IMG/VR virus record: IMGVR_UViG_2639762784_000001
Coordinates: 21,285 to 85,284 of that record
Reading direction: 5' to 3' (one strand)
Length of the DNA: 64,000 nt
Origin: a virus
Taxonomy: Duplodnaviria; Caudoviricetes
The notes under the pieces were generated by a model. It saw only the letters and a program-made list of their open reading frames with translations. It had not been told where the DNA came from and did not search any database. Shown here in pieces: positions 7,999-60,226 of the stretch. Position 1 is the first letter of the stretch. Each line of letters starts with the position of its first letter. The position numbers were made by a program, and so were the translations under genes.

Positions 7999-10900
7999 GT
8001 GTCCGAGTGGAATCTGTCGGTACGCCTCACCGGGCAGGGCTCCGACCTCGCACGCACCCTCCGCAGCCTTTCCCACGACGCCAACAACGCCTCCCGCAAC
8101 GTCCAAGCCCTCCGCCGGAACCTCCAACAGCTCCGCCGCGAGACGCGAAACCCCATCCGTGTCCGCCTCGACGTGGACGCCGCACACCTCCGCAGTGCCG
8201 GCGCAGGGCAGGGCCTGGCCGTGAACCTGCGCCTCGGCAACGCCATGCAGCTACGGCGCGAGGTGGAAGATGCGGTGCGTTGGGCGACGTGGGGGCACCG
8301 CATCGAAATCCCCATCGGCCTCGCCGACCCGATGCAGCTGCGCCGGGACGTCACGGCCGCCGTGCGGTGGGCGCAGGACAACCAGCGGATCCGCCTGCGG
8401 GTCGACGCGGACACCAGCGCTCTGCGCGGCCTGGGCGGCACCCTCGGCGGCGGCTCGGGCTCCAGCAGCGGCGGCCTCGACATCGGTCTCGCCGGACTGC
8501 TACCCATCGCCACCGCCGCGATCCCTCTGATTGCCGGGCTGTCCACCAGCCTTGGGCCGCTCGCCGCCGGGTTCACGGCCAGCGGTACAGCAGCGACTGC
8601 GTTCGGGATCGCCCTTGCCGGACAGATCGGTCCGCTCACCGAGGTCGCGGACGCGCAGACGAAGTACGAGGAAGCAGTCCGGGAACACGGCCGGTCATCC
8701 GGGGAGGCGACGGAAGCACAGATCAAATACCAGCAGATCCTCGCCGAACTGCCGCCGGAAGCGCAGCAGGCCGCCATGGCGATATCGCGGCTGAAGACGA
8801 ACTTCGGCGACTGGTCGGATGAGATGTCCGGCTTCACCATGGCCCCGCTCACCAAGGGCATCACCGTCCTCGACCAACTCATCCCGCGCCTGACTCCGCA
8901 TGTGAAGTCGGCGTCCACCCAGCTGGACCGGCTGGTCACCGTCGCCGGCGGCGCCATCAACACGCCCGGCTTCGACGCGATGACCGCGAAGTTCGCCGAC
9001 TTCACAGACCGGCAGCTGGACGAGATGACCGACGGCGTCATCCACTTCCTGCGTGTCCTGTCCGAGGGCGGTGCCTTCCAGGACGGGCCGATCGCCGAGT
9101 TCATGGCCTACGCCCGCGCGAACGGGCCTGCCGCCCGCGAAGCGCTGTCCGCTATCTCTGCGGCTGTAGTGACGCTGCTGCGGGCCGCGGCGGAGGCCGG
9201 GCCGACCATGCTCACCCTGGTCACCGCGTTCGCGAACCTGGTGGCGGCGCTACCCCCCGAACTGGTCGGCATCATCCTCCAGGTCGCCACCGCCCTGAAA
9301 CTCCTCCAGCTCACGGGGGCGGGCATGGCCGTGCTCGCCGCCGGGCTGGGCCGGGTCCGTACCGCGGTGGCCGCCCTCGGCACCACGGCCGCCACCGCAG
9401 GCGGCGGCATCGCCGGACTGAGGGCCGCGTTCCTGTCCCTCGGGCTCGCTGCGCGGGCATCCATCGTCATTGCCGGGATCGCCGCCGTCGTCGTCATCTT
9501 CAAGGAACTCTCGGAGATCGGGAAGCAGGCCCCGCCAGACGTCGACAAACTCACCACCTCCCTCGGAAAGCTCGGGCAGACCGGCAAGGTCGCCGGCGAG
9601 GCATCGAGGGCGTTCGGCAAGGACCTGGGCGGCCTCGCCGACAGCCTGCGCACCCTCTCCAGGCCCTCCAATCTGGACAAGACGCAACAGTTCCTGACCA
9701 GCCTGGTCGGCATGGACTCCACCCCGGTCAAGGAAGCCAAGGAGGACCTGGACGCCGTCGACAAGTCCCTCTCCAACCTGGTGAAGGCCGGCAAGGGCGA
9801 CATCGCCGCGGCAGCGTTCGAGCGGATCGCGGCCGCGATGCGCAAGCAGGGCATGTCCGGCAAGGAGCTCCGGGAGCAGCTGGACGACTACAAGTCCGCC
9901 CTCGCCGACCAGGCCTTCGAAGCCGAGCTGGCCGCCCAGTCGATGGGCATGTTCGGACAGGCGGCGCAGGAGACGTCGGCGAAGCTCGCAGACCAGAAGG
10001 CCAGCGCGGACGGTCTCCGCCAGTCGATCATTGCCCTGAACGACGTCAACCGGGCCGCCGGCTCCGCGATGTCCGCGTTCGAGCAGTCCATCGACGACAC
10101 CACTAAAGCGATCAAGGAGCATGCCGGGGCGCTGAAGATGCGCGACGGGGAACTCGACCTCGGCTCCCAGAAGGCCCGCGATGCCGAAGCCGTCCTCTCC
10201 GACCTCGCCGCGAACACGGATGCCGCCGCGGCCGCTGCCCGGGAGCAGGGCAAGAGTTGGGAGTACGTCAGCGGCATCCAGGAGCGCGGCCGGGCTGCGT
10301 TCATCGACGCCGCCGACGCCATGGGCCTGTCCAAGGCGCAGGCGGAGGCGCTCGCCGACTCCTACCTGGCGATCCCTGACGAGAAGTCCACGCGGATCGA
10401 CATGCGCACCGAGGACGCCATCGCCGGCCTGGACGCGGTCATCGCCGCGATCGAGGAAACCCCGGACAAGAAGTCCGTCACGGTGGACGCCCTCACCACC
10501 CAAGCCGTCACCATGCTGGAAAGCCTCGGCTTCAAGGTGACCGAGCTGAAGGACGGCCGTTTCAAGGTCATCGCCGAGACCGGGACCGCCGGCAGCGCCC
10601 TGGATGAGCTGAAGGGTCGACGCGACGGACTTCAGGACAAGACGATCACGATCGACGCGGCGACCGTGGGCGCGATCACGGACCTGGAGAAGATCAAGGC
10701 GAAGGTCGCCTCCACCAACGGCAAGACCATCACGATGAAGGCGCCGACCGCTGAAGCGCGCCGCCAGCTCGAGCTTCTCGGCTTCAAGATCCGGGACACC
10801 AAGGGGAAGAACGTCACCATCACCGTGCCGACCGGCTCGCAGCGCGCCAACGTCAGCGCCCTCGCCTCCGCCATCGCTGGGCTGCGGAACAAGAGCGTCA

Positions 10901-17310: not shown

Positions 17311-17694
17311 ATGCCCGATCCGATCACACAACAGGACGAGCAGACGGCTGCCCGGAAGAAGACCGCTCCCGCCCCGGAGCCCTCCCCGGCCCCCAGCCCC
17401 GACACCACCGTCGTCGACACGGCACGGTACGAGCCGTACCCCGGCGCCGCGTTCTTCCACGGCGGCCGACACTCACCCCTCTTCGCGGCGATGGCCCGAC
17501 GCCTCGATGCCGAAGGCTGCACCGACGGCCGCCACCTCGGACCGGACTGGACGACCGCCCACCGCGACGCGTTCGCCACCTGGCAGCGCACCCTGCGCCC
17601 CAAGGAGGGCGGCGACGTGTCCGGCATCCCCGACCAGGTCGCCTGGGACCGACTCCACGTCCCGCGCATCACACCCCTTCCCAAGGAGACCTGA
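17311..17694 (+). CDS. Stand-alone peptidoglycan-binding domain protein
   Basis: YEPYPGAAFF..GPDWT..FATWQR..GIPDQVAWDRLHVP resembles Streptomyces PG-binding modules. Confidence 0.7.
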   Translation: MPDPITQQDEQTAARKKTAPAPEPSPAPSPDTTVVDTARYEPYPGAAFFHGGRHSPLFAAMARRLDAEGCTDGRHLGPDWTTAHRDAFATWQRTLRPKEGGDVSGIPDQVAWDRLHVPRITPLPKET

Positions 17695-17695
17695 G

Positions 17696-18673
17696 ATGGC
17701 CACCCCGCTGTCCGCCACAAAGCTTCTCGCCGTACTCAAGGCCGAGGGCTGCAAGGTTGTCGAGTACCGGTCTTGGCGTACCCACAACCGCAACTCCAAG
17801 GGCGCCTGGGGTCCCGTCAACGGTGTCATGATCCACCACACCGTTTCATCAGGCGAAGACTCATCCGTCGCGCTCTGCTACAACGGGCACACCCTCCTGC
17901 CCGGACCGCTCTGCCACACCGTCGGGGGCAAGTCCGGAAAGCTGTACATGGTCTCCGCAGGCCGCGCCAACCACGCCGGCTCCGGCGACGGCGACGTACT
18001 GCGCGCCGTCATCAACGAAACCGCACTGCCCGCAGACAACCAGGCCAACACCGACGGGAACTCCCGCTTCTACGGCCTGGAGATCGTCAACCTCGGCAAC
18101 GGCAAGGACACCTACCCCGCCACCCAGTACGACGCCGCAGTCCGGTGGGCCGCCGCGATCTGCCGCGCCCACGGCTGGGGCGCCGCATCGGTCATCGGCC
18201 ATAAGGAGTGGCAGCCCGGAAAGATCGACCCCCACGGGCCTGTCGAGGGCCGCGGCCCCTTCAACATGACCGCCTTCCGCCGCGACGTCGCCGAACGGCT
18301 GAAGAACGCGGCCTCCTGGAGCTCCGGCTCCACCCCGAGCACGCCCGACACCGCGGAGGACCCCATGGCAGGGATGACCAAGCAGGACATCTACGAAGCG
18401 GTGTGGAGGACGGACGCCATCACCGCGCCCGCCACGGCCACAGACCGCGCCACGAACAAGACATGGGAGCCGCAGTCTTACCTCAAGGACATCGGCAACC
18501 GGGTCAGGTCGATGGACAGCCGTCTCGCCGCCCAGTCCGCCGCGATCACCGAGCTGACGAGGACCGTCACCCAACTCGCCACCAACAGCGAGTCCCTCGA
18601 CGCCGACGCGCTCGTCCACCGCATCGAGCAGGCCATCGAAGCCATCGACATCCGCCTCGAAGTCACCAGCTGA
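17696..18673 (+). CDS. Endolysin, N-acetylmuramoyl-L-alanine amidase (Amidase_2)
   Basis: GVMIHHT, RANHAG, YGLEIVN and VIGHKEW..KIDP zinc-amidase motifs. Confidence 0.9.
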   Translation: MATPLSATKLLAVLKAEGCKVVEYRSWRTHNRNSKGAWGPVNGVMIHHTVSSGEDSSVALCYNGHTLLPGPLCHTVGGKSGKLYMVSAGRANHAGSGDGDVLRAVINETALPADNQANTDGNSRFYGLEIVNLGNGKDTYPATQYDAAVRWAAAICRAHGWGAASVIGHKEWQPGKIDPHGPVEGRGPFNMTAFRRDVAERLKNAASWSSGSTPSTPDTAEDPMAGMTKQDIYEAVWRTDAITAPATATDRATNKTWEPQSYLKDIGNRVRSMDSRLAAQSAAITELTRTVTQLATNSESLDADALVHRIEQAIEAIDIRLEVTS

Positions 18674-20070: not shown

Positions 20071-22515
20071 ATGACCATGGTGAACGGCACGCTCCTGGGG
20101 GGCGGCGATTCGCGGCGGGTGGAGATGCGGGCCGCGCTAGTCGATGTGACCGGCGCCCCTGCGGTCGGCTATGTGCCCTCCCTGGAGGGAGAGCTGGTGC
20201 GCCCGGTGCCGATCACCCCCGACCAGGGTGGGGACTGGTCGGCGGACCTCACCCCGAACAGCCTGATCGAGTCGACGTCCGGGGACACCCTGTGGGCGGT
20301 GCAGGAGGGCCGCACCCTGTCCGGTGTTCCGATCATCACCCACATTCTGGTGCCCGAGGCCGGCCAGTGGTGGGTGGGGCAGCTGCGGGTCGACCTGGCA
20401 GACACACAGACCGGTCAGGGCAGCATCGTCTACGTGCCTGGCGAAGCCGGACCACAGGGGGCACAGGGCCCGGCCGGGCCGGCCGGTACCGACGGCCAGG
20501 ACGGCACCCCCGGAGCCCCGGGCGCAGACGGTGAGGACGGGGCATCCGCCTACGAGGTGGCCGTCACGAGCGGGTTCACCGGCACACAGACGCAATGGCT
20601 GGCCTCCCTCGTCGGCCCCCAGGGCGAGCCGGGCGAGCAGGGCGAGCAGGGTCCGCCCGGCGCTGACGGTTCCAACGCGGACGCGGAGGCCTACACCGAC
20701 ACCGCCATGACCGCCGAAGTGGCGCGCGCGGATGCCGCCTACGAGCCGGCTGGGACCGCGACGGCCGCCGTTTTTGCCCACACCAGCGCGACCGACCCGC
20801 ACGGGGACCGCGCATGGGCCGACAACAAGTTCGCCACCCTCACCGCCCTCGGCACCCTCAACGCCACCGTCACCGACCTCGGCGGCGCCGTCACCAACCT
20901 CGACGGATTCGTGCAGGACTGCCTCACCCGGGTCGCCGGAATCGAGCAGGGAACCGCCTGGCTGTCCGCCCTCAACGTCGCCGGGAACGCTCAGATATCC
21001 GGTGGGGACCTGACCGTGTACGACACGTCCAAGGGCTACCGGCTCCGCCGCGGGGGCGCCGACCTGGACCTTGAAGGCACCGGCGCCGACCTCGTCACCA
21101 GCGTGTGGTCCGGGACCGCGTTCAACGGCACCCAGCACTCCTACGACCGGTACTCCGCAAGCTCCCTGAATGTGCAGCATGCCGGGAAACGCGAGTTCGT
21201 GGACGGCCTGTACGGCGCCGCCCGGCACGTCCTGGACCCCGACAGTGACCGCATCGGCTTCTTCGGCGCCGACCCGGCCGGCCAGCAACAGGTCACCGGA
21301 GCCTCACAAGGGGAGACGGTGGCGTCTCTGACGGAGGCGCTCGCCGCCTACGGGCTCGTCGTGAACGTGGCCGCCCCCGCGGCGAAGGGCGTGTACGTGC
21401 CGAACGGGTGGGGGGAGCACTGGCGGGCCGCCCGCGACACCGCCAGCGCCACCCCCGCACGAATCGTCACCCTCGGAGGCAGTGCGACGCAGGGCATGTA
21501 TGCCTCCAACCCGATCACCCACTCGTGGCCGGGCCTGGTCCGTACCGCCCTCCAGGCCCAGTACGGGGACGGCGGCTCCGGATATCACACGACGAGTCTG
21601 TCCTCGACCGTCCTCGCCTCGGGAGATGCCGCGGCGCTCGCCGCATGGACGACTGCCGGTGCGATCGTCGGGCAGAGTGGCACCTGGTCCCTGTCCGCGA
21701 ACCGGTACGGGCCGGGTATCACCGGCGTGTACACCGACGTGACCGGCTCCACCATGACGTTCACGGTCCGCGGCACCACCGTGAAGATCTACACCATCAG
21801 CGGCGGCACCCGCCCGCCTTTCACCTACGCCATCGACGGCGGCACGGCAGAGACTGTGACCGTGCCCGGCGGAACCGCCGCCGTGCAGGTCACCACCATC
21901 ACCGACCTCACCCCAGGCACCCATACAGTGGTCCTCACCTGCGGCACGACCACCACCGGCCAATACCTGACCGTCGCCGGAGCCGCCGGGGAGAACGCCA
22001 GCGGAGTCATCGTCGACAACCTGGCCCGCGCGGGCGCCGGCTCCGGTTCCTACGCGACGCTGCCGGAGTCGGCGCTGAACGCCACATGGAACGGCGGCAT
22101 CAACTACCCGGCCAGCCTGGCCATCTACACGGCCGGACCCAACGACGCATCCAGCGATGTCGCCCCCGACGTGTGGGTGGACAACGTGGCCGCCTGGCTG
22201 CGCGGCGTACGAGACCTGGGCACCTCACAGGGCGCCACGGACATCATCCTCGGCATGCCCCACCTCGGTCGGCACACCACCGCGAACTACCGATACGCGG
22301 AGTACGCGGCGCGGCTGCGCTCGCTGGCGGCGTCGTACAACGCTGCGGTGGTCGACTGGTGGGAGATGGGCCGCAACAGCTGGCCGTACTGGTCCACGCT
22401 CGGGTATTGGGGCACGAACGCGGGCACCGGCGGGGCCGGGACGGACAGCGTGCATCTGTCGAATGCAGGGTTCGCCGCGATGGCCTCCCCGGTCATCGAC
22501 CTGCTGAAGGCCTGA
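20071..22515 (+). CDS. Collagen-repeat appendage protein with C-terminal SGNH/GDSL hydrolase domain
   Basis: Gly-X-Y repeats, SAYEVAV..GFTGT..WLASL, DPHGDRA; SGNH blocks LGGSATQG, GPND, DSVH. Confidence 0.72.
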   Translation: MTMVNGTLLGGGDSRRVEMRAALVDVTGAPAVGYVPSLEGELVRPVPITPDQGGDWSADLTPNSLIESTSGDTLWAVQEGRTLSGVPIITHILVPEAGQWWVGQLRVDLADTQTGQGSIVYVPGEAGPQGAQGPAGPAGTDGQDGTPGAPGADGEDGASAYEVAVTSGFTGTQTQWLASLVGPQGEPGEQGEQGPPGADGSNADAEAYTDTAMTAEVARADAAYEPAGTATAAVFAHTSATDPHGDRAWADNKFATLTALGTLNATVTDLGGAVTNLDGFVQDCLTRVAGIEQGTAWLSALNVAGNAQISGGDLTVYDTSKGYRLRRGGADLDLEGTGADLVTSVWSGTAFNGTQHSYDRYSASSLNVQHAGKREFVDGLYGAARHVLDPDSDRIGFFGADPAGQQQVTGASQGETVASLTEALAAYGLVVNVAAPAAKGVYVPNGWGEHWRAARDTASATPARIVTLGGSATQGMYASNPITHSWPGLVRTALQAQYGDGGSGYHTTSLSSTVLASGDAAALAAWTTAGAIVGQSGTWSLSANRYGPGITGVYTDVTGSTMTFTVRGTTVKIYTISGGTRPPFTYAIDGGTAETVTVPGGTAAVQVTTITDLTPGTHTVVLTCGTTTTGQYLTVAGAAGENASGVIVDNLARAGAGSGSYATLPESALNATWNGGINYPASLAIYTAGPNDASSDVAPDVWVDNVAAWLRGVRDLGTSQGATDIILGMPHLGRHTTANYRYAEYAARLRSLAASYNAAVVDWWEMGRNSWPYWSTLGYWGTNAGTGGAGTDSVHLSNAGFAAMASPVIDLLKA

Positions 22516-31590: not shown

Positions 31591-32556
31591 ATGGCTCAGG
31601 CCATCCAGGCCGCCGCGAACGCGGGCGGTCCGACTTCTCACACCCGTTTTCAGTTCGCTCCGGCCACCAAGGAGCAGTCCAAGGCCCGCGTCGCCCTGGA
31701 CGGGCCCAGCGGTTCGGGCAAGACCTACTCGGCGCTGACGATCGCCACGGCGCTCGGCTCTCGCATCGCTGTCATCGACACGGAGCGCGGTTCGGCCCGC
31801 AAGTACGCCAACGAGTTCGCCTTCGACGTCCTGGAGCTTGCGTACTTCTCCCCGGACGACCTGGTGGAGGCCCTGGCGGCTGCCGGGTCGGCCGGGTACG
31901 ACGTCGTCATCGTCGATTCCCTGTCGCACTTCTGGTCCGGTTCCGGCGGCATGCTGGAGCAGGTCGACCACGCCGCGAAGAAGGGCTTCGGCGGGAACAG
32001 CTTCGGCGGGTGGAAGGAAGCCCGGCCGATGGAGCGTCGCATGGTCGATGCGCTGGTCTCGTACCCGGGGCACGTCATCGTGACGATGCGTGCGAAGACG
32101 GACTACGTACTGGAGACCAATGACCGTGGCCGGCAGGTGCCGCGGAAGGTTGGCATGAAGCCGGAGCAGCGTGAAGGGCTGGAGTACGAGTTCGACATCG
32201 TCGGCTCGATGGACTGGGAGAACACTCTCGTGGTCACCAAGTCCCGGGCACGGACGTTGACGGGTGCGGTGGTGCGGCAGCCGGGTATCGAGTTCGGTCA
32301 GCAGATCAAGGCGTGGCTGGAGGACGGTACGGCGGTGCAGCCGGTGCAGGACCTGATCACGGAGGCGAACCGGGAGAACGCCACGTTCGAGGACCTGGGT
32401 GCACTGATGCGGAAGGTTCGGGCGCGCCGGCTGGAGGGTGCGCCGATGCTGACGCCGGAGGGTTCTGCGACGACGCTGGGTGCCCATATCCAGGAGCGCG
32501 GCAAGCAGATGCGGAAGGCCGCGCAGGGCGGCGACACGGAGAGGGGAGCCGCCTGA
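31591..32556 (+). CDS. AAA-family ATPase (AAA_24 / Sak4-like recombination protein)
   Basis: Walker A GPSGSGKT, IDTE, Walker B VIVDSLSH, EYEFD. Confidence 0.85.
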   Translation: MAQAIQAAANAGGPTSHTRFQFAPATKEQSKARVALDGPSGSGKTYSALTIATALGSRIAVIDTERGSARKYANEFAFDVLELAYFSPDDLVEALAAAGSAGYDVVIVDSLSHFWSGSGGMLEQVDHAAKKGFGGNSFGGWKEARPMERRMVDALVSYPGHVIVTMRAKTDYVLETNDRGRQVPRKVGMKPEQREGLEYEFDIVGSMDWENTLVVTKSRARTLTGAVVRQPGIEFGQQIKAWLEDGTAVQPVQDLITEANRENATFEDLGALMRKVRARRLEGAPMLTPEGSATTLGAHIQERGKQMRKAAQGGDTERGAA

Positions 32557-34262
32557 TGGGGTACCGCAACGACAACGACGCGTTGTCTGTTATGGATTGG
32601 TTCTGCGGGGCAGGAGGGTCCTCCCAGGGCGTTCACTCCGTGCCCGGCGTCCGCGTGGAGCGGGCCGCGAACCATTGGAAGCTCGCCATTGAGTCGCACG
32701 CCGCGAACTTCCCCACCACCAGCCACTACCAGGGCGACATCCGTAAGGCCCCGGTGTGGGACTGGCCGGTGACCGATATCTTCTGGGCCAGCCCAGAATG
32801 TACTAACTGGAGCGTCGCCAAGGGTAAGAAGCGGGACTTCGCCGACGCCATGCAGGGCAGCCTCCTCGATCTCCTCGCCTCGACCGACGAGGACGACGAG
32901 CCGTCTGCCGAGGAGGAGTCCCGGGCGCTGATGGAGGAGGTGCCGCTGTACCTACGCGGTGTGCAGGAGCGGGGCGGCTTGGTGAAGGCCGGCATCGTCG
33001 AGAACGTCACCGACGTCCGCGCCTGGGACCAGTGGGACCGGTGGATCGGGGAGATCCACAAGCTGGGCTACCGCACGCGGATCATCGCCCTGAACTCGAT
33101 GCATGCGAACCCTCGGTCGGTGCACGCGGCGCCGCAGTCCCGGGACCGGCTGTACGTCGGCTACTGGCACGAGAGCCTGGGCCGCACGCCGGACTGGGAC
33201 AAGTGGCTGAGGCCGCGCGCCTGGTGCTCCGGCTGCGACGCGTTCGTGCAGGCGATGCAGGTGTTCAAGGACCCGAAGCGGGACATGGGCCGCTACCGCA
33301 GCCAGTACGTGTACCGGTGTCCGAACACCCGCTGCCGCAACCAGGTCGTTGAGCCGGAGGCCCTGCCCGCCGCCGCGGCGATCGACTGGTCGATTCCCGG
33401 GCAGCGGATCGGTGACCGGGCCAAGCCGCTCGCCGACAAGACCCTCGCGCGCATCGAGGCCGGACTGAAGAAGTTCGCTCGCCCCGTGCCGATGATGGTC
33501 CCGGCCGGCGGCACCTGGCGGGACGCCGCGGTCTCCGTCGGCGAGCCGATGCCCGCGCGTACCACCCGCGAGAACGACGCGCTGATGGTGCCGCCGCTGA
33601 TGGTCCCCGTCGAGGGCCGCGTGGGTAAGAGTGCGGCGTCCGCGCACGGCCCACTGCGGGCGATGACGACCCGCAACGAAACCGGGCTGGCTTGGCTGCC
33701 GTTCATTGCCGAGTTGCGGGGCGGCGGCTCCGTTGCCCGGACCGTGGCGGAGTCCCTCGCCACTGTGACCGCGTCCGGGAACCACCACGGGCTGGTCACG
33801 CCGCCGATGCCCGCCATGGTGATGCGGAACAACGGCTCCAAGGGCGACGGCGGCGAGCACTGCACCTCGCCGGTCGAGCCGTTCCGGACGATGACGACGG
33901 CCGGACACCAGTCGCTGCTCACGTGGGAGCACATGCTCGTCCCGTACTACGGCAATGGTGCCCCGCGGTCGGTGAATGAGCCGATCGGTGCGCTGACAAC
34001 CCGGGACCGGTACGCCCTGGTGCGCGGTGAGGTCGACATCGACGACGTGATGTTCCGGATGCTCGAGCCGCACGAGATCGGCCGCGCGATGAGCTTCGCC
34101 GACGAGTACGTGGTCCTCGGGAACAAGCGGGAGAAGGTCCGCCAGTACGGCAATGCCGTTACCCCGAACGCTGCCGAGGTTCTGGTGTGCGCGCTGGTGG
34201 AGGCCGTCACCGGCGAGGACATCGACCGGTACGCAGAGCCGGAGTTCGCGGCCGCCGCCTGA
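32556..34262 (+). CDS. Orphan C5 DNA cytosine methyltransferase
   Basis: Motif I DWFCGAGG, IV SPEC, VI ENV, VIII PQSRDRLY, X YGNAV. Confidence 0.92.
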   Translation: MGYRNDNDALSVMDWFCGAGGSSQGVHSVPGVRVERAANHWKLAIESHAANFPTTSHYQGDIRKAPVWDWPVTDIFWASPECTNWSVAKGKKRDFADAMQGSLLDLLASTDEDDEPSAEEESRALMEEVPLYLRGVQERGGLVKAGIVENVTDVRAWDQWDRWIGEIHKLGYRTRIIALNSMHANPRSVHAAPQSRDRLYVGYWHESLGRTPDWDKWLRPRAWCSGCDAFVQAMQVFKDPKRDMGRYRSQYVYRCPNTRCRNQVVEPEALPAAAAIDWSIPGQRIGDRAKPLADKTLARIEAGLKKFARPVPMMVPAGGTWRDAAVSVGEPMPARTTRENDALMVPPLMVPVEGRVGKSAASAHGPLRAMTTRNETGLAWLPFIAELRGGGSVARTVAESLATVTASGNHHGLVTPPMPAMVMRNNGSKGDGGEHCTSPVEPFRTMTTAGHQSLLTWEHMLVPYYGNGAPRSVNEPIGALTTRDRYALVRGEVDIDDVMFRMLEPHEIGRAMSFADEYVVLGNKREKVRQYGNAVTPNAAEVLVCALVEAVTGEDIDRYAEPEFAAAA

Positions 34263-53519: not shown

Positions 53520-54392
53520 GTGACCACCACCCACATCGGCCGCTCGTTCCTCGGGATGCGTCCCGACATCGAAGACTCCTGCCCCTGCCCGAAGGCGCCA
53601 TGCGGGCTCGTCATCGCCGACGAGGCCAGCCCGGAGTGCGGCCAGCATCACTGGTCGGCGGCGAAGACGATGCGTCAGTCGCACCCGGCGGACGAGTGCC
53701 CCGCCGAAGCCCGACCCACCCCGGCCGCCCCCGCGGGCAGCCTTCCCGATCTCACACCACCATCAGGAGACCCGATCATGACCGACCAGCAGATCACCAC
53801 CGCCCTCACCCACCGCCTGCGTCTCGCGCACGACTACATGCAGACCCACGGCTGGACACAGCACACCGAAAAGGACGAGCAGGGTCAGGTGTGTCTGACC
53901 GGAGCGGTCCGACTGTGCTCACCCAAGACCGGTGACGAGTACCTCGTCAGGGCTGTACTCCAGCATCGGGGCCTGGCGGAGTCCTGGAACGACGCCGCGG
54001 ACCGCACCGTGGCCGATGTGCTGGATGTGCTCTCCACACTGGAGATCACGGACACCGACCTGGAGCACACGTTCGGTCCCGGATGGGCCGGCGTGGTCCG
54101 GGTCGTGCGTGAGGCCGCCACCCTGACGGAAGAGCAGGCGGACCGGATCTCTGCCGCCTGGGATGCCGCCCAGTCTGCCGCCTGGTATGCCGCCCAGTCT
54201 GCCGCCTGGTATGCCGCCTGGGATGCCGCCTGGGATGCCGCCCAGTCTGCCGCCTGGGATGCCGCCCAGTCTCCCGCCCGGCCTGCCGCCCGGGATGCCG
54301 CGCTCGCTGAGGCCACCAGGCACCACACCACCCCCGAGCAGTACCAGTTGCTCTCCGCCCCCTGGCAGACGGTGTTCCCCGTCCAGGACTGA
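53520..54392 (+). CDS. Hypothetical protein (DUF6197-like domain plus AAWD repeats; second in-frame start at 53778)
   Basis: AGGAG before both GTG 53520 and ATG 53778; [19 protein letters not shown] motif. Confidence 0.6.
54153..54302 (+). repeat. Coding 12-bp tandem array GCCGCC(TGGGAT/CAGTCT/TGGTAT)
   Basis: Encodes [12 protein letters not shown] tetrapeptides. Confidence 0.9.
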
Positions 54393-54612: not shown

Positions 54613-55170
54613 ATGACCGACACCGACGACCTCACCCCGCAGACCCCCGAGGAACTCATCGCCGACCTCGGCGAACTCCACACGCGCACCATGGTGTCCC
54701 CCCTCCCGAAGCAGCCCGCGGCGATGGGCTGGCAGGCCGTCGCCGGGACCATGGCCGCCGGGTTCACCCGCGCCCTGTACGCCCTCAACGAGGTCGACCC
54801 CGTCAAGGCAACCGAGATCACCGCGTGGTACCAGGGCCCGTTCGAGGACGGCCCGGACCCGGAGGAGCACACGGACTGGCTGGAGCGGACCGTCGCGAAG
54901 GTCGACCTGGATCTGCTGGAGCGGTGGGTGCAGGACGGCCAGCGTCTGGCGGAGTCGTCCAAAGCCGCCGTGGAAGCCCACGAGGCGGAGAAGTGGGAGC
55001 CGCTGCGCCTGGCCCTGTCCCAGGCCCTCGGTCTCGGCACCGGCGCCCCGTGGAACGCCATCCAGGACCGCGCCACCGAACTCGCTGCCCTCACCGACAA
55101 GCACCGCTGCGACAACTGCGAGGGCGTGGCCCCGGCGTCCTGCCTGGTGAATCCGGAGCGCACCGCGTGA
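54613..55170 (+). CDS. Hypothetical protein flanked by 119-bp repeats
   Basis: AAGGAG RBS, ATG 54613. Confidence 0.65.
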
Positions 55171-55517
55171 ACGCCCCAGTTCTGGTGGGCCCGTCACCCG
55201 ATGGTGGCGGGCCCGCCCCGGCTCCGCACAGGGCCCGGCACCTCGTCCAACGCCCCCTCGAACCCCGCGCGCACATCACCCGCCGCCAAATCGACATCCT
55301 CCGCCTCGCCGCGAACGGCAGCACCAACCGGGCCATCGCCCACCAGCTGGGCGTGAGCGAGGAAACCATCAAGACCCAGTTGCAGGTGGCGTACCGGAAG
55401 TTGCGGACGAGGGATCGCACGCAGGCGGTCACGGTGGCGCTGCGTCTGGGGCTGCTGTCGCTGGACGACATCGACGTGCCGGCGGGCGCGAACTCCGGCT
55501 ACCGGCACTCCGAATGA
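55167..55517 (+). CDS. Stand-alone LuxR/GerE-type HTH regulator
   Basis: [46 protein letters not shown]. Confidence 0.82.
55203..55321 (+). repeat. 119-bp direct repeat, copy 2
   Basis: Identical to 54414-54532. Confidence 0.92.
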
Positions 55518-55584
55518 CCCAGCGAAACGGACATCTTAGACACCGCCACCGGCGGGTAAGACCGATCAAGCCCGGGAGGGCCCC

Positions 55585-55842
55585 ATGCACCGCATCCGCC
55601 CACACCTCGGGCTCACCGCGTACATCCTCGTCGGAGCCGCCACCGGAACCGGCAGCGTCCTGTTCTGGCTTCGCGTCCTCGGACCGGACCGCCCCCAGTG
55701 GGTCCTGTTCCTGATAACCGCTGTGACGGCCCTGATCGTGTTGAGGGCTGCGGCCGAAGCGCAGCACCGCCACGGAAGGCGGCGGCCCCGCCGCGCCCAC
55801 GCCCGACCCCACCCCGCCAAGACCGGAAGGAAGATCGCATGA
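55585..55842 (+). CDS. Small two-TM membrane protein
   Basis: GGGAGG RBS; two hydrophobic segments. Confidence 0.55.
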   Translation: MHRIRPHLGLTAYILVGAATGTGSVLFWLRVLGPDRPQWVLFLITAVTALIVLRAAAEAQHRHGRRRPRRAHARPHPAKTGRKIA

Positions 55843-56372
55843 CCGACCGCCCGCCCCTCGAGGACCTGGACGCCGAACCGGAGCCCGCACGCTGGTGCTG
55901 CAACGGCAACGCAGAAGACTGCGCCCTGTGCACCGATCCGAACCCGCCCTACCCGTTCGTCTGCCCCGAGCATCCGCGGACGCCGGACAACGAGCGGATT
56001 GTGGAAGACAAGGCGGAGGAGCGGGCCGCGGCGGAAGCCTACGATCGGGCCCTCCGTACCCCGCCCAGCGCGGAGGCGTGCGCTGCTCTCCGGGAGCGGT
56101 TGACGTCGGGAACGGTCGCTCGCCGGAAGGTTCGCCGACGGACGGCGACCGAAGCGACCGGAGCCGTCTGCACGGTGACCGTGACCGTGCACGCCCCGAC
56201 CGAGGAGAACGCCGCAGCGTGGGCGCAGACGATTAGCGATCTCGTATCTGCCGAGCACGGGCAGGAGATGCGGCTGAACATCCAGATCGACCGCCCGCGG
56301 AAAGCGTGCTGCGGCAAGGACATCGGGCACCACATCTTCTGCCCGACACGCCAGCCCAAGGAGCAGCCGTGA
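55839..56372 (+). CDS. Hypothetical protein
   Basis: ATGA overlap; Cys clusters at both ends. Confidence 0.55.
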   Translation: MTDRPPLEDLDAEPEPARWCCNGNAEDCALCTDPNPPYPFVCPEHPRTPDNERIVEDKAEERAAAEAYDRALRTPPSAEACAALRERLTSGTVARRKVRRRTATEATGAVCTVTVTVHAPTEENAAAWAQTISDLVSAEHGQEMRLNIQIDRPRKACCGKDIGHHIFCPTRQPKEQP

Positions 56373-57013
56373 GCGCCGCGGGTGGGTCCGCGACCCGTGA
56401 GGCTGCCCGCATCCGCAGGAGCGGCCGGAAGGGCGCGTGGGGCCACATCACGGCGTGGGCGGGCATGAACCCGGAAGCCGCCCGCGCGGACGCCACAGCG
56501 GCCCGGTGGGAGTTAGGGGCCCGCGCGGAACGGGCCACCGCACGGCTGGTGCGGCCGCTTTGGTGGCGTGGCTGGCGGATACGGCACGACCTGCGGATGG
56601 CCGGCCGCCGCTTCAACATCGACCACGTGCTCGTGGCGCCGTGCGGGACGGCGGTCGTCGTCGGGGACACCAAACGCTGGCATGCCGGGCGGGCGACGCA
56701 CGCGGTGGGCGGGCGGCTGTTCTGCGAGGCGGAGGACCGACACGGTGAGGCGGAGAAGGCTGCCGGGTACGCGCGGCTCCTCCAGGACGCGCTGGGCCTG
56801 CCCGGGGTGGTGGTGTGGCCGGTACTGATCGTGCACGGGTCCCCGGTGGCGGCGGGCGGGCATGTGCAGGTGGTGGCGGGGGCGGGGGTGGTGCAGGTGG
56901 TGGCCGCGGACCGGGTGCGGGGACTGTTGCGGGGTGCGTCGTCGGGCTGGTCGTGGAGCCGTGCCCGGCGGGTGGCGGCCCGGGTGGACGAGGTACTGCG
57001 CCCCTACCAGTGA
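56369..57013 (+). CDS. NERD (nuclease-related domain) protein
   Basis: GARAERATA..GWRIRHDL..NIDHVLVAP..VGDTKRW; in-frame TTA at 56513. Confidence 0.8.
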   Translation: MSAAGGSATREAARIRRSGRKGAWGHITAWAGMNPEAARADATAARWELGARAERATARLVRPLWWRGWRIRHDLRMAGRRFNIDHVLVAPCGTAVVVGDTKRWHAGRATHAVGGRLFCEAEDRHGEAEKAAGYARLLQDALGLPGVVVWPVLIVHGSPVAAGGHVQVVAGAGVVQVVAADRVRGLLRGASSGWSWSRARRVAARVDEVLRPYQ

Positions 57014-57056
57014 TCGGCAGGGGACCGTAGGGTGGGTGGACGCCTGGGGGCATGAG

Positions 57057-57097
57057 GAGGCCCGTCATCTGCTTCGTGCAGGTGGCGGGCCTCTTTT
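57057..57097 (+). terminator. Intrinsic terminator
   Basis: GAGGCCCGTCATCTGC / GCAGGTGGCGGGCCTC plus TTTT. Confidence 0.82.
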
Positions 57098-57118
57098 CGT
57101 GTTTCTGCACAGAACCGG

Positions 57119-57147
57119 TTGCGCCTTCCAGATTTGGAAGCTACCTT
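57119..57147 (+). promoter_or_regulatory. Promoter with palindromic operator in the spacer
   Basis: TTGCGC-17-TACCTT with CTTCCA-GATT-TGGAAG (57125-57140). Confidence 0.78.
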
Positions 57148-57200
57148 GGTGTCGTGAGGTCAGGGGAACAGCCCCAGACCCCAGTCGGAAGGACCCGACC

Positions 57201-57662
57201 ATGAACCGCATCGACATCGCCCACCAGGTCTCCACCACCCTCGGCGACCATGCCGACGACTTCAACATCGACGGCATCGTCGACGACCTGATCGCCGCCC
57301 ACGACGGCAACCTGGCCAGCATTGACGACTTCGACTCTCAGTCCTACTGGGCCATCGTCGAGACCCACGACGTTTCCACCCAGGCTGACGAGGACAACGA
57401 CCTCGGCACCACCGCATGGCTCGCCGTCCAGTCCAACGTCCTCGTCTACGGCGAGGGCCCCCAGGTGATGGTCCTCGCCCACCAGGCTGACGGCAACGCC
57501 CTCGAGGTGATGCCCTCCACGGCCCTGCCCGTCCCCCTCAGCGACGACCACGACATTGCGCAGGACGCCGCTGAGACCACCCTCAAGGCGGCCGGCTGGG
57601 AGACCGTCGGGGAGTGGAACGCCGTCGACACCGGCTACACCGTCAAGGTCCGCCGCGCCTGA
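57201..57662 (+). CDS. Highly acidic hypothetical protein (anti-CRISPR/anti-defence candidate)
   Basis: 153 aa, about 28 D/E versus 5 K/R by manual count; directly upstream of Aca2-like gene. Confidence 0.7.
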   Translation: MNRIDIAHQVSTTLGDHADDFNIDGIVDDLIAAHDGNLASIDDFDSQSYWAIVETHDVSTQADEDNDLGTTAWLAVQSNVLVYGEGPQVMVLAHQADGNALEVMPSTALPVPLSDDHDIAQDAAETTLKAAGWETVGEWNAVDTGYTVKVRRA

Positions 57663-57730
57663 CCCGTCGCCCCCTTCCGCCTGGGCCCGTCCTCGTACTG
57701 CCGGGGACGGGCCCGCCCTTTGGAGAACCG

Positions 57731-58189
57731 ATGCCCGAGAAGACCTACACCGACCCGGCCGGCATGCCTGACGACGAACGCATGACGCCCGCAGAACTCC
57801 GCGTCGTACGCGAGTTCCTAGGCCTGACCCCCGAGTGGCTTGCCGCTCACCTGAACGTGTCCGGGCGGACCGTCCGCCACTGGGAGCAGGGCAAGTACGC
57901 CATCCCTGATGGTGTCCGCCTGGAGATCGAAGACCTGGAGCGGCGCACCGGTGAGTTCGTGTCCGGGGTCATCGACAAGCTGATGGACCTGCCCGACCCG
58001 GCGGTGGTCACCTACCGGGACGACGCCGAATACCGGGCTGCACGCCCGGATGCCGAGTTCCCCGCGTCCTGGCACCGTGCGGTCGTCGCCCGTGTCGCGC
58101 AGGAGGTGCCGGCCCTGTCCATCGCCTACCCGGACGAGGCCGCCACCGGTGCGCCGGCCCAGACCGCGCGGCAGGGGGCGCGGAGGTGA
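57731..58189 (+). CDS. Aca2/YdiL-like (DUF1870) HTH regulator
   Basis: MTPAELRVVREFLGLT..VSGRTVRHWEQG..IPDGV..YRDDAEY..ASWHRAVVARV. Confidence 0.8.
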   Translation: MPEKTYTDPAGMPDDERMTPAELRVVREFLGLTPEWLAAHLNVSGRTVRHWEQGKYAIPDGVRLEIEDLERRTGEFVSGVIDKLMDLPDPAVVTYRDDAEYRAARPDAEFPASWHRAVVARVAQEVPALSIAYPDEAATGAPAQTARQGARR

Positions 58190-58983
58190 CCTGCAAGGCG
58201 CCGACGTCGTCGTGCGGCACCCCCTCCGGGTGGCGGGCCGGTGGGCGCTGCGTGCGCTGCCGTCTCGCCCACAACCACGACACGAGCAGCCGCCGCGGCC
58301 TGACCGACCAGGAGCGTGACACCTTCCTGACCATGCTGCGCGCCGGGAAGACCGTGGAGGAAGCGGCAGAGGGCGCCGGCGTCACCACGAATGCGCTGGC
58401 GCAGGCCGCGCGCCGTGACGGGGAACTGCGGGCCGCCCTGGACGGCATGCCGGTCGGCGTACAGGCCGCGGCGCAGCGCGCCGAGCTGCTGGCCGCCCTG
58501 GTCCGCTGCGGCGGGAACCAGGCCCTCGCCCAGGACCAGGCCGGTCTCCCGCACGGCACCGTCAACAACTGGCGGCAGGCTGATCCGGAGTTCGATGCGG
58601 TGGTGCAGTCGATTCTGGTGTGGCTGGACGCCTCGGAAGGGCGGAACCGCAAGCGGGTCGGGAACCGGATGCATCAGCATGCCGCCCGGTTCCGTGAACT
58701 GTGGATGTCCGGGGCGTCCTACCGGGAGATCGGGGACGAGCTGAGCATCACCCCTGCCACCATCAGTTCCTGGCGCAGGAAGATGGACCTGCCGGCCCGC
58801 AGCACGCCGGTGCTGGACGAGCATGCCGACCGCTTCCGGGAGTTGTGGGAGGCCGGAGCTACTTACGAGGCGATTGCCTCGGAGTTGGGGATCAGTGAGG
58901 CCACCGTCTACCTGTGGCGGTCCCGGCTGGGTCTGCCGTCCCGGCACCGGGTGAAGACCGAGGTCGACGTTTTGAACGCCTGA
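58186..58983 (+). CDS. Multi-HTH DNA-binding protein
   Basis: Repeated RFRELW..GASYREI..ELSI..TI..WR units; N-terminal CVRC. Confidence 0.7.
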   Translation: MTCKAPTSSCGTPSGWRAGGRCVRCRLAHNHDTSSRRGLTDQERDTFLTMLRAGKTVEEAAEGAGVTTNALAQAARRDGELRAALDGMPVGVQAAAQRAELLAALVRCGGNQALAQDQAGLPHGTVNNWRQADPEFDAVVQSILVWLDASEGRNRKRVGNRMHQHAARFRELWMSGASYREIGDELSITPATISSWRRKMDLPARSTPVLDEHADRFRELWEAGATYEAIASELGISEATVYLWRSRLGLPSRHRVKTEVDVLNA

Positions 58984-59017
58984 CGGACGTGCGACTGACC
59001 CCGCTCCGCGGGGGATG

Positions 59018-59055
59018 AGGGCGGGCGCCGCAACGGGGGATGCGGCGCCCGCCCT
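59018..59055. terminator. Hairpin between convergent operons
   Basis: AGGGCGGGCGCCGCA / TGCGGCGCCCGCCCT perfect 15-bp inverted repeat. Confidence 0.75.
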
Positions 59056-59092
59056 GGCAGTCTGGCACGCGCCACCGACAGGACGGGGCGGT

Positions 59093-59365
59093 TCAGGATG
59101 GGATGTTCAGCCACTCCGGGGGCTCGGCCAGGCACGGCGCGCTGGCCGCACTGGTCACGGGGACCTGCCCGTCCGGGGCGGCGAGGATGTTGCCGGTGAG
59201 TTCGTCGAGGACGAACTCTGTGTAGAGGATCACGCGCTGCCCGTCCTGTACGGCGATGCGGAGGTCGGAGTCGCGTAGCGGAACTGTGCGCGGGTTGATG
59301 CCGTTCGCGGTGAGCCCCTCGCAGAGGGCGAGCCGTTCTTCCTCGGTGGGGTGCGTAACGCCCAT
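59093..59365 (-). CDS. Hypothetical protein
   Basis: TGATG-coupled start. Confidence 0.6.
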   Translation of the reverse strand: MGVTHPTEEERLALCEGLTANGINPRTVPLRDSDLRIAVQDGQRVILYTEFVLDELTGNILAAPDGQVPVTSAASAPCLAEPPEWLNIPS

Positions 59366-59658
59366 CAGGCACCGTCCTCGCCATGAAGGGTGTGTCCCAC
59401 CTGTCGGATCACGTCGGCGAGGTCTGCGTGGGAGTAAGGGTCGTCGTCGTCCATGAAGCCGATGTCGCAGAGGGCGCGGCGGATGTCGTCCAGTTGGTGT
59501 TCCTTGGCGCGGCGGGCCTGGTGGGCGAGGCGGAGGCGGCTCTCTGCGGTCTCGGTGCGTTGCCGCTGCTCCTCGTACGCCTCGGGTGTGGGTGCGACGT
59601 CGCCGCGGCCGCAGGACGGGCAGTAGCCGGTGGGCGGGGCGGGGGAGGTCTGGGCCAT
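59365..59658 (-). CDS. Hypothetical protein
   Basis: TGATG-coupled; CPSC; ends EDGA. Confidence 0.6.
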   Translation of the reverse strand: MAQTSPAPPTGYCPSCGRGDVAPTPEAYEEQRQRTETAESRLRLAHQARRAKEHQLDDIRRALCDIGFMDDDDPYSHADLADVIRQVGHTLHGEDGA

Positions 59659-59918
59659 CAGGCACCGTCCTGAGTGGGCGGGGCGAGCTTGCCTGCCATG
59701 AAGGCGCGCCCCATCGCGGCTGCGAGCTGGGTGTCGAGGTTCTCCATCTCCTTCTCGGCGGTGGAGCCCTCGCTGATGATCCGGACGGCCATGGCGAGGC
59801 CGGAAAGCATGCCGGACAGGAAGATGCCGGCAGGCGTGCCGTCGGTCTGCTGGGTGAACTCCTTGCCGACTTCGAGGAGGGCCTTGATCTCGCGCTGTTC
59901 GCGGGGGTCCATGGGCAT
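59658..59918 (-). CDS. Hypothetical protein
   Basis: TGATG-coupled; ends PTQDGA. Confidence 0.6.
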   Translation of the reverse strand: MPMDPREQREIKALLEVGKEFTQQTDGTPAGIFLSGMLSGLAMAVRIISEGSTAEKEMENLDTQLAAAMGRAFMAGKLAPPTQDGA

Positions 59919-60226
59919 CAGGCACCGTCCTGGGTGGGCTGGAGGGCTACGTGCGGGTAGGCGCGCACATGCGTGAGGTCCTCGTTGGGGACGGTCTTGC
60001 CGCCGAGGGGTCTGGCTGATGTCTCAGCCCAGCCGGCGTGGACGCTGGGGAAGAGGACGAGCTGGGCGCCGGATTCGATGCATAGGTCGTTGGGGCCGAT
60101 GACGCGGATGCGGCCTTGGCGGAGGCAGACGGGGTCGGTGCCGATGAATGCGACGGTGTCGCCTTCGGTGAGGGGGCGTCCGCTGTAGTCGACGGCCTGG
60201 GGCGGGGGCGTGTCGGTGGTGGGCAT
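59918..60226 (-). CDS. Hypothetical protein
   Basis: GGAG RBS; ends PTQDGA. Confidence 0.6.
   Translation of the reverse strand: MPTTDTPPPQAVDYSGRPLTEGDTVAFIGTDPVCLRQGRIRVIGPNDLCIESGAQLVLFPSVHAGWAETSARPLGGKTVPNEDLTHVRAYPHVALQPTQDGA

Follow-up and report, generated by a model that had tools for sequence, protein, structure and literature searches.

The window analysed here is a 64,000-nucleotide stretch of virus DNA (Duplodnaviria; Caudoviricetes), positions 21,285 to 85,284 of the IMG/VR record IMGVR_UViG_2639762784_000001. It forms the last 64 kb of the 85,284-bp contig C50, which belongs to a genome of 89 contigs and 7.5 Mb. The window encodes an operon in which a very acidic cargo protein, P0001, is followed by P0002, a repressor of the Aca2 family. 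The operon is very probably an Aca2-controlled accessory module within a variable island. The family of the regulator, a conserved operator and conserved leader hairpins, a variable cargo slot and a conflict with the CRISPR system of the host were all observed. P0001 is a candidate anti-defence protein because it is the first gene product of an Aca2 operon, fills a variable acidic slot and belongs to an element in conflict with its host. By analogy with known operons of this type, the proposal that P0001 is a counter-defence protein under Aca2-family control, blocking a host immune protein, is judged to be evenly balanced. The genes of the operon are as follows.

57201..57662, + strand: cargo gene P0001, 153 amino acids (aa), 28 acidic (D+E) and 5 basic (K+R) residues
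57731..58189, + strand: aca2-family repressor gene P0002, 152 aa, with a helix-turn-helix (HTH), an Aca2-type C-terminal domain and a 35-aa tail
58186..58983, + strand: P0003, 265 aa, with a GTG start overlapping the aca2 stop (GTGA)

The P0002 gene lies on a mobile element in the same orientation as P0001, 3' of it after a spacer of 68 nt. A first-pass annotation of the same DNA had read it as an HTH protein with the Aca2/DUF1870 pattern and proposed a profile search, which bore this out. P0002 scored 33.8 bits against the Pfam family Aca2_YdiL (PF08965), over the gathering cut-off of 23.8, with residues 18-118 on profile positions 1-105 of 118. The solved Aca2 chains 8w35, 7vjo and 7b5j were matched over residues 18-114 with expect values (E) of 3.4e-9 to 2e-8. 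In a comparison of sequence only, these residues aligned with 5-101 of the 120 residues of 8w35_A (E 3.4e-9), taking in the HTH and the C-terminal dimerisation domain. The next-best solved relative was HigA-2 (E 0.003). Judged by these alignments P0002 is a genuine member of the Aca2/DUF1870 family.

Relatives of P0002 formed 687 clusters at E<=1e-10 among 815 candidates. The named entries were nearly all from Streptomyces and several were annotated as DUF1870 or Aca2/YdiL-like. Searches with tblastn found the family in 43 records of the plasmid collection (Prescottella 28, Streptomyces 6, Gordonia 3, and others) and in 46 phage records (Mycobacterium 41, Streptomyces 2, Pectobacterium 2, Thermobifida 1). 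It was also present in 9 of 300 other genomes sampled from the window's own genus. The 28 Prescottella equi plasmids carry annotated Aca2/DUF1870 homologues with approximately 38% identity, and those listed range from 52 to 432 kb, mostly approximately 80 kb.

P0003 has a CxxC-rich N-terminus followed by three or four HTH repeats. Small terminases and "transcriptional regulator, D5-like" are among the PHROG families it matches. In locus L030, too, aca2 is followed by a gene of this type. From its overlapping start, P0003 is probably the third gene of the operon and translationally coupled to aca2.

The region before the first gene contained the following features.

57119..57147, + strand: predicted promoter, with -35 TTGCGC (57119-57124), a 17-nt spacer and -10 TACCTT (57142-57147)
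57125..57140: operator palindrome CTTCCA-GATT-TGGAAG inside the promoter spacer, the predicted site of an Aca2 dimer
57158..57180, + strand: hairpin 1 of the 5' untranslated region (5'UTR), GGTC-A-GGGG, loop AACAG, CCCC-A-GACC
57184..57199, + strand: 5'UTR hairpin 2, whose loop carries the Shine-Dalgarno sequence AAGGA (57189-57193), 7 nt before the ATG

Leaders of 125 nt ahead of the first gene were compared across 15 loci, namely the window, six plasmid or phage loci, six genomes of the genus and two viral contigs. The order was TTGCGC or TTGTGC, palindrome, TAnnnT, hairpin 1, hairpin 2 with the Shine-Dalgarno loop, and ATG in 14 of the 15. The -35, palindrome, -10, two hairpins and start codon were also equally spaced in these 14. 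The fifteenth locus, L009, has the same parts placed further upstream and a different palindrome. The promoter and the palindrome in its spacer had both been called from the sequence beforehand. The promoter was found as described, with its layout kept in the related loci, and the palindrome proved to covary with the regulator. Variant palindromes occupy the same place in relatives (GCTTCCTAAATTAGGAAGC; TTTCCACATTTGGAAA), and the palindrome sequence shifts in step with the divergent regulators of L023 (GCGCCCTAAATTAGGGCGC) and L009 (CTACACCCTAATTTAGGGTGTA).

The operator with its A/T-rich centre occurs once in the 7.5-Mb genome, where exact CTTCC-N6-GGAAG sites number 20 overall. The sequence of hairpin 1 is also found once in the whole genome. 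A search for further operator sites found none above chance in the window, where 5 matches at one mismatch compared with an expected 1.8, and none elsewhere in the genome, giving no indication of a second operon under P0002.

Both hairpins were conserved in pairing while their sequences changed. Across 14 loci hairpin 1 has 8 pairs, 3 of them compensatory, with 99.1% of alignment cells paired. Hairpin 2 has 4 pairs, 2 of them compensatory (GTCGG/CCGAC, CCGG/CCGG, CTGG/CCAG), with 96.3% of cells paired. Taken together, the two hairpins (12 pairs in 14 sequences) have 98.2% of cells paired, and 5 of the pairs have changed on both sides. This number of compensatory pairs (5 of 12) was matched by none of 500 shuffles, and sliding the partner by one column reduced pairing to 59-63%. 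As the 14 sequences are related, the covariation is support for the predicted hairpins and not proof of them. No Rfam family was found for the leader.

A 2026 paper in NAR (PMC13551039) describes Aca2 as shutting off transcription through an inverted repeat that overlaps the promoter, while two conserved 5'UTR hairpins block the ribosome-binding site. It also refers to an "actino-motif" class of such RNA elements as described earlier. The leader of the window fits this published class of combined DNA and RNA control, and its identity with the "actino-motif" would follow from the description given there.

One further hairpin lies between the cargo gene and aca2.

57683..57714, + strand: GC-rich 13-bp hairpin, then CCCTTTGGAG

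The spacer between cargo and aca2 was considered in 13 loci, of which six were unparsed, one had a 381-nt gap and six had short extracted spacers (54-68 nt). A hairpin of other sequence was present at the same position in all six short spacers. The hairpin at 57683-57714 is likely to be an attenuator or partial terminator, by which aca2 would be expressed below the cargo.

The cargo slot before aca2 differed from locus to locus. The first-pass annotation had suggested looking for such variation among related elements, and at least five mosaic classes were found, nearly all of them acidic. Among plasmid, phage and genome loci they were distributed as follows.

N+C (both modules of P0001): window, L001, L030
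C only: L007, L019
N only: L017, L020, L033
Type B (unrelated acidic protein of approximately 110 aa): L002, L018, Gilgamesh gp86
Type D (Cys-rich acidic protein): L016
Cargo fused to Aca2: L008, L009

The acidic classes have 16-38 acidic residues against 1-11 basic residues. In a census of viral loci, 26 IMG/VR contigs were retrieved via the regulator and the gene directly before aca2 was classed.

C-type: 8
Type B: 9
N only: 3
N+C: 1
Type D: 1
Left unclassed: 4

A basic protein of approximately 170 aa with an HTH_17-like N-terminus, termed type E, is the first gene after the leader in 7 of the 26 viral loci. The type E loci are L042-L046, L051, L063 and L023, and in these it lies ahead of the acidic cargo. 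Type E was rejected as a cargo class equal to the acidic ones, since a separate acidic gene stands before aca2 in six of the seven viral loci.

The element carries phage and plasmid genes together, as the term phage-plasmid in the first-pass annotation implied. Large terminase (TerL), portal, major head, tape measure and tail genes make up the phage side of contig C50; ParB, a tyrosine recombinase and an FtsK/SpoIIIE-like gene make up the plasmid side. The major capsid protein was found in 49 plasmid records, 36 of them from Streptomyces. Among those listed, plasmids with the same capsid were 85-152 kb in size, mostly approximately 85-94 kb, and several were circular. A circularity check found no end overlap in C50; its same-capsid relatives are complete plasmids of similar size. 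From this gene content, Streptomyces-type phage-plasmid is a fair name for the element.

The nearest relative by capsid is pSLE1, whose capsid protein is 91% identical. Window positions 56845-59913 have no DNA match in pSLE1, which has other genes, including Ku, between the same flanks. This region is a replaceable accessory island. A megablast search of window 55000-60000 against phages gave no matches. Among sequencing runs, none of RNA was listed as containing the sequence, and one soil-metagenome run contained a small share of it. The pSLE1 genes found in place of the island encode a hypothetical protein, a DUF6233 protein, Ku and an HTH protein. In relatives L001 and L002 a DNA ligase gene precedes the aca2 operon.

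P0001 has 28 acidic and 5 basic residues and a net charge of approximately -23. This matched exactly the very acidic 153-aa open reading frame described beforehand. The suggestion that it was bipartite also held and could be extended, as P0001 consists of two separately shuffled modules. The alignment and the structural model (predicted local distance difference test score, pLDDT, 81) place a helical N module at residues 1-60 and a C module at residues 68-153, with a disordered acidic linker between them. The C module was modelled as three strands, a helix and three strands (pLDDT 90; predicted template modelling score 0.79).

Close relatives of P0001 numbered 33 among 42 candidates and all were hypothetical proteins, compared with the 687 clusters of the regulator family. 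Those with names were all from Streptomyces except for one Nocardioidaceae metagenome bin, and several were on contigs of 83-95 kb. Searches with P0001 found only unnamed actinobacterial or viral clusters in the ESM Atlas (all scores <0.9) and only uncharacterised actinophage proteins in BFVD. A profile search of 1.84 billion representatives returned 301 proteins at E<=0.001, among which the N and C modules occur independently. Proteins consisting of the N module alone (57-65 aa) or the C module alone (84-108 aa) are common.

Both modules were also joined to DNA-binding domains. The N module is found at the C-terminus of a Phd/YefM-type DNA-binding domain (7 of 90 scanned profile matches have PF02604), after Xis-like HTH domains and, in forms of 212-216 aa, before an internal HTH-like module. 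The C module is fused ahead of the Aca2 domain in P0102 and in P0010 of plasmid locus L008, and ahead of other HTH domains elsewhere. The N gene of L039, on a plasmid of 16.9 kb, overlaps a Phd/YefM gene of 63 aa, after which comes ssb; no adjoining toxin gene was found. In L029 the N gene is followed by an Xis-like HTH gene, and no toxin gene was found nearby. A tblastn search with P0074, a Phd/YefM-N fusion, gave no full-length copy in the plasmid collection. The occurrence of these modules with many small repressors is the pattern of one cargo with many regulators that is known for acr-aca loci.

The same fusions could mean that the N and C modules act with or on a regulator. P0001 would then have a non-defence function linked to DNA-binding regulators, as an anti-repressor or co-regulator of a lysis or maintenance switch; a host-takeover factor or an anti-competitor weapon would be further forms of it. 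This is the main rival explanation, though a rather unlikely one. The repeated joining of the modules to Phd/YefM, Xis-like HTH, Aca2 and internal HTH-like domains fits it, as do the coupled multi-HTH gene P0003 downstream and the diverse contexts in which Aca2-like regulators are found (Usher et al. 2021, PMC8434428). However, part of a switch would be expected to stay with its partner, yet unrelated acidic proteins are swapped before one regulator. The whole module is missing from the nearest relative pSLE1, and stand-alone N and C proteins are common, which also argue against this explanation.

A toxin-antitoxin-like module in reverse gene order, as in HigBA and MqsRA, or an antitoxin-like neutralising role for P0001, was considered highly improbable. 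The gene order of a small protein and then an Xre-type HTH protein agrees with such a module, P0002 is weakly similar to HigA-2 and to MqsA-type HTH domains, and the seven profile matches mentioned above join the N module to DNA-binding domains of Phd/YefM antitoxins. Yet P0001 is strongly acidic and matched no toxin family in Pfam, PHROGs, NCBIfam or PADLOC, and cargo and regulator form single polypeptides in some elements. The N-module/Phd pair of L039 is followed by ssb and not by a toxin gene. The match of P0002 to Aca2 is also six orders of magnitude better than that to HigA-2.

The host of the element encodes a type I-E CRISPR system. Contig C28 has two arrays with a 61-nt period, containing 52 and 12 repeats in the first scan and 63 spacers. 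By Pfam a complete operon (cas3-cse1-cse2-cas7-cas5-cas6e-cas1-cas2) lies between them. The type I-E link made in the first-pass annotation was thereby substantiated, as the host has a complete system that includes spacers directed at the element. Matches to C50 were found for four of the 63 spacers, two of them at 32/32. The arrays and the matched sites are listed below.

Contig C28, 4024-7155 and 17189-17861: type I-E arrays
Window 17685..17716, + strand: protospacer of sp33, 32/32, 5' flank CAA, one base out of register with AAG
Window 57340..57371, - strand: protospacer of sp36, 32/32, inside P0001 (codons 47-57)
Window 57372-57374: 5' flank of the sp36 protospacer, AAC (codon V58 on the + strand)
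Window 54901..54932, + strand: protospacer of sp31, 31/32, flank AAG, mismatch at spacer position 2
Window 10804..10835, + strand: protospacer of sp32, within the tape-measure gene, 31/32, AAG flank, mismatch at position 3

In the type I-E system of E. coli the protospacer-adjacent motif (PAM) is AAG, the last repeat base comes from the PAM and the seed consists of positions 1-5 and 7-8. Imperfect targets drive priming in that system. Across the 63 repeats of C28 the last base was G in 44, T in 8, C in 7 and A in 4. For sp31, sp32, sp33 and sp36 it was the base that adjoins the protospacer in the element. The last repeat base therefore apparently records the flank of each acquired protospacer. 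Because the repeat bases match the flanks in the element, the targets from which sp36 and sp33 were taken up had exactly the flanks seen at the resident ones. The AAC flank of sp36 had been considered as an escape mutation of AAG; this was rejected, as the preceding repeat ends in C and points to a source target that was C-flanked.

A perfect match and an AAG flank do not occur together in any of the four targets. Those with AAG are mismatched, and the perfect ones are flanked by AAC or CAA. By the E. coli rules this pattern of mismatches and flanks suggests escape, in which interference would have acted on the element or a direct ancestor. The pressure of CRISPR on the element is real, and coexistence requires no anti-CRISPR, since each of the four protospacers is disabled, two of them through a mismatch in the seed and the other two through a flank other than AAG. 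The check for self-targeting spacers proposed in the first-pass annotation was thus upheld in that 4 of 63 spacers match the element, and was not upheld as a sign of an anti-CRISPR (Acr), none of the four being a perfect target with AAG.

The spacers sp31, sp32, sp33 and sp36 sit at a distance of 15-20 positions from the array's cas-proximal end, taken here as the leader end. None of the 15 spacers beyond the sp31-sp36 group, taken as newer, matches C50. The sp36 sequence is also matched at 32/32 in the homologous gene of a plasmid whose local DNA is otherwise 74.5% identical, so that sp36 targets the most conserved stretch of the N module.

These data bear on the more specific proposal that P0001 is an anti-CRISPR against the host's type I-E system, blocking Cascade or Cas3, so that the element lives beside matching spacers. 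P0001 is the first gene of an Aca2 operon, and the host has the complete operon and 63 spacers, four of which match the element and two of these perfectly. By the E. coli rules targets with a non-consensus flank or a mismatched seed should prime new acquisition, so the lack of matches among the 15 newer spacers would fit a block of Cascade. However, no target has both a perfect match and AAG, and an escape pattern is unneeded under an effective Acr. P0001 has no similarity to any solved Acr, and the cas genes could be silent or the element recently arrived. A type I-E anti-CRISPR is possible and is a minority reading which is not favoured, and it was considered distinctly unlikely. The reading of P0001 as a counter-defence protein of some kind remains the preferred one.

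Two further spacer matches were seen outside the element. For one C28 spacer the match lies in the minor tail gene of Streptomyces phage Kromp; the flank there is AAC and the repeat ends in C. Spacer sp53 matches contig C65, which is of chromosomal size, at 150191-150222 with 29/32 identity, and this may be another mobile element or a chance match.

Several results weigh against a counter-defence role for P0001 or against parts of the operon model. No family was assigned to P0001 in Pfam, PHROGs, NCBIfam or PADLOC. Profile searches of the PDB with the N and C modules gave best E values of only 0.05-0.3, and Foldseek searches of the PDB with the whole model and the C-module model gave best E values of 0.2-0.27 (0.27 for the C module). 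Aca2-like proteins also occur outside anti-defence contexts, as PMC8434428 shows YdiL alone and SO3848 after an SMI1/KNR4 gene. The seed mismatches in both AAG-flanked protospacers suggest that any shielding of the element from type I-E interference was incomplete. A strict sigma-70 consensus scan made no call at 57119-57147; the promoter was accepted despite this because its layout is conserved in the related loci. Guilt by association is in addition a prior rather than a test. The label of anti-defence candidate given to the locus in the first-pass annotation thus stands through guilt by association only, and P0001 has no relative of known function to carry it further. No sequence or fold match to solved Acr or anti-restriction proteins was obtained for P0001 in the PDB searches; the missing Acr relatives weigh little, as many Acr families have no relatives.

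The proposed course of events follows that of Aca2 in Pectobacterium phage ZF40 by analogy. Binding, repression and anti-defence activity are carried over from that system. A strong promoter would fire once the element enters a cell, and the first product would be the very acidic two-module protein P0001. The hairpin after P0001 would let reduced transcription through to aca2. As P0002 accumulated, its dimer would bind the palindrome in the promoter spacer and turn transcription off. Translation of the cargo would probably also be blocked, through binding of P0002 to both 5'UTR hairpins, of which one displays the ribosome-binding site. P0001 would be one of a mosaic pool of small acidic proteins that fill the slot, and most likely binds and blocks a host immune protein.

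The operon resembles acrIF8-aca2 of phage ZF40 and the "actino-motif" class in several respects. P0002 belongs to the same Pfam family as the ZF40 regulator and aligns with the solved Aca2 across both domains, HTH and C-terminal. The operon is carried by a mobile element, with the cargo gene placed ahead of the regulator gene. An inverted repeat lies at the promoter, and two conserved 5'UTR hairpins, here predicted, lie at the ribosome-binding site. In contrast to acrIF8-aca2, P0001 is unrelated to AcrIF8 or to any named Acr and the host system would be type I-E and not I-F. P0002 also differs in its 35-aa C-terminal tail, and the operon in the GC-rich hairpin between cargo and regulator and in the coupled multi-HTH gene.

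Fusion proteins of Acr and Aca are exemplified by AcrIIA1. Relatives P0010, P0011 and P0102 likewise fuse the C module or another acidic domain to Aca2, and in some relatives Phd/YefM or HTH domains are joined to the N module. However, cargo and regulator are separate genes in the window, and the fused forms are known from their sequence alone. Ocr and ArdA are acidic DNA-mimic anti-restriction proteins. P0001 is similar to them in being small, very acidic and encoded by an early-type gene on a mobile element. It had no sequence or fold match to either in the PDB searches, and its C module is predicted as a compact strand-helix-strand domain unlike an elongated helical mimic.

A further comparison was with Streptomyces phage Gilgamesh, in which gp87 is 78% identical to P0002 and the promoter, palindrome and hairpins are the same. 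Gilgamesh gp86, a protein of 107 aa, is also acidic and sits in the cargo slot, but it is a type B cargo whereas that of the window is N+C. The two Gilgamesh products are annotated only as a hypothetical protein and an HTH protein.

The class of operon is already known, while the cargo modules are uncharacterised and have no solved relative. A literature search found no anti-CRISPR or anti-defence protein of a Streptomyces element. To our knowledge Streptomyces phage-plasmids and their defence conflicts have been little studied. The locus is a well-defined and testable candidate: its regulator is of a known type, its operator and RNA element are defined (both as predictions), and it has a natural host whose intact type I-E system has demonstrably met the element. 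With at least five cargo classes behind one recognisable leader, the leader offers a means of searching Actinomycetota for counter-defence genes. The seed mismatches and flanks form a clean record, left in nature, of a resident plasmid's escape from CRISPR. A broader and more tentative proposal, held with some doubt, is that N, C, type B and type D belong to a large unnamed pool of modular counter-defence domains in actinobacterial phages and plasmids, held down by interchangeable repressors of the Aca2, Phd/YefM and Xis types, adjacent or fused, and that the host has stored a spacer against the conserved core of the anti-defence gene. If true, P0001, as an Acr or as an inhibitor of restriction or of Pgl/BREX (phage growth limitation/bacteriophage exclusion), would count among the first anti-defence proteins from Streptomyces elements.

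Two features were identified upstream of the operon.

56306-57013: NERD-domain gene P0004 (NERD PF08378, E 9.3e-9)
57054..57096, + strand: terminator-like hairpin with a 19-pair stem and then a T-run (1 found against 0.5 expected in shuffles)

The hairpin corresponds to the terminator noted in the first-pass annotation. It is terminator-like in form and would terminate the NERD gene and shield the operon from upstream transcription.

Elsewhere on the element, window 32313-34262 encodes a DNA methyltransferase of 649 aa (PHROG 116, E 4e-52), which possibly serves for self-protection from restriction. Positions 1-600 of contig C50 are a 94% identical inverted copy of window 53689-54300, which may represent a paralogous gene or the reason why the assembly broke. 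Within window 53689-54300 is a short tandem repeat whose translation gives AAWDAAQS... in one frame and PPGMPPS... in a second.

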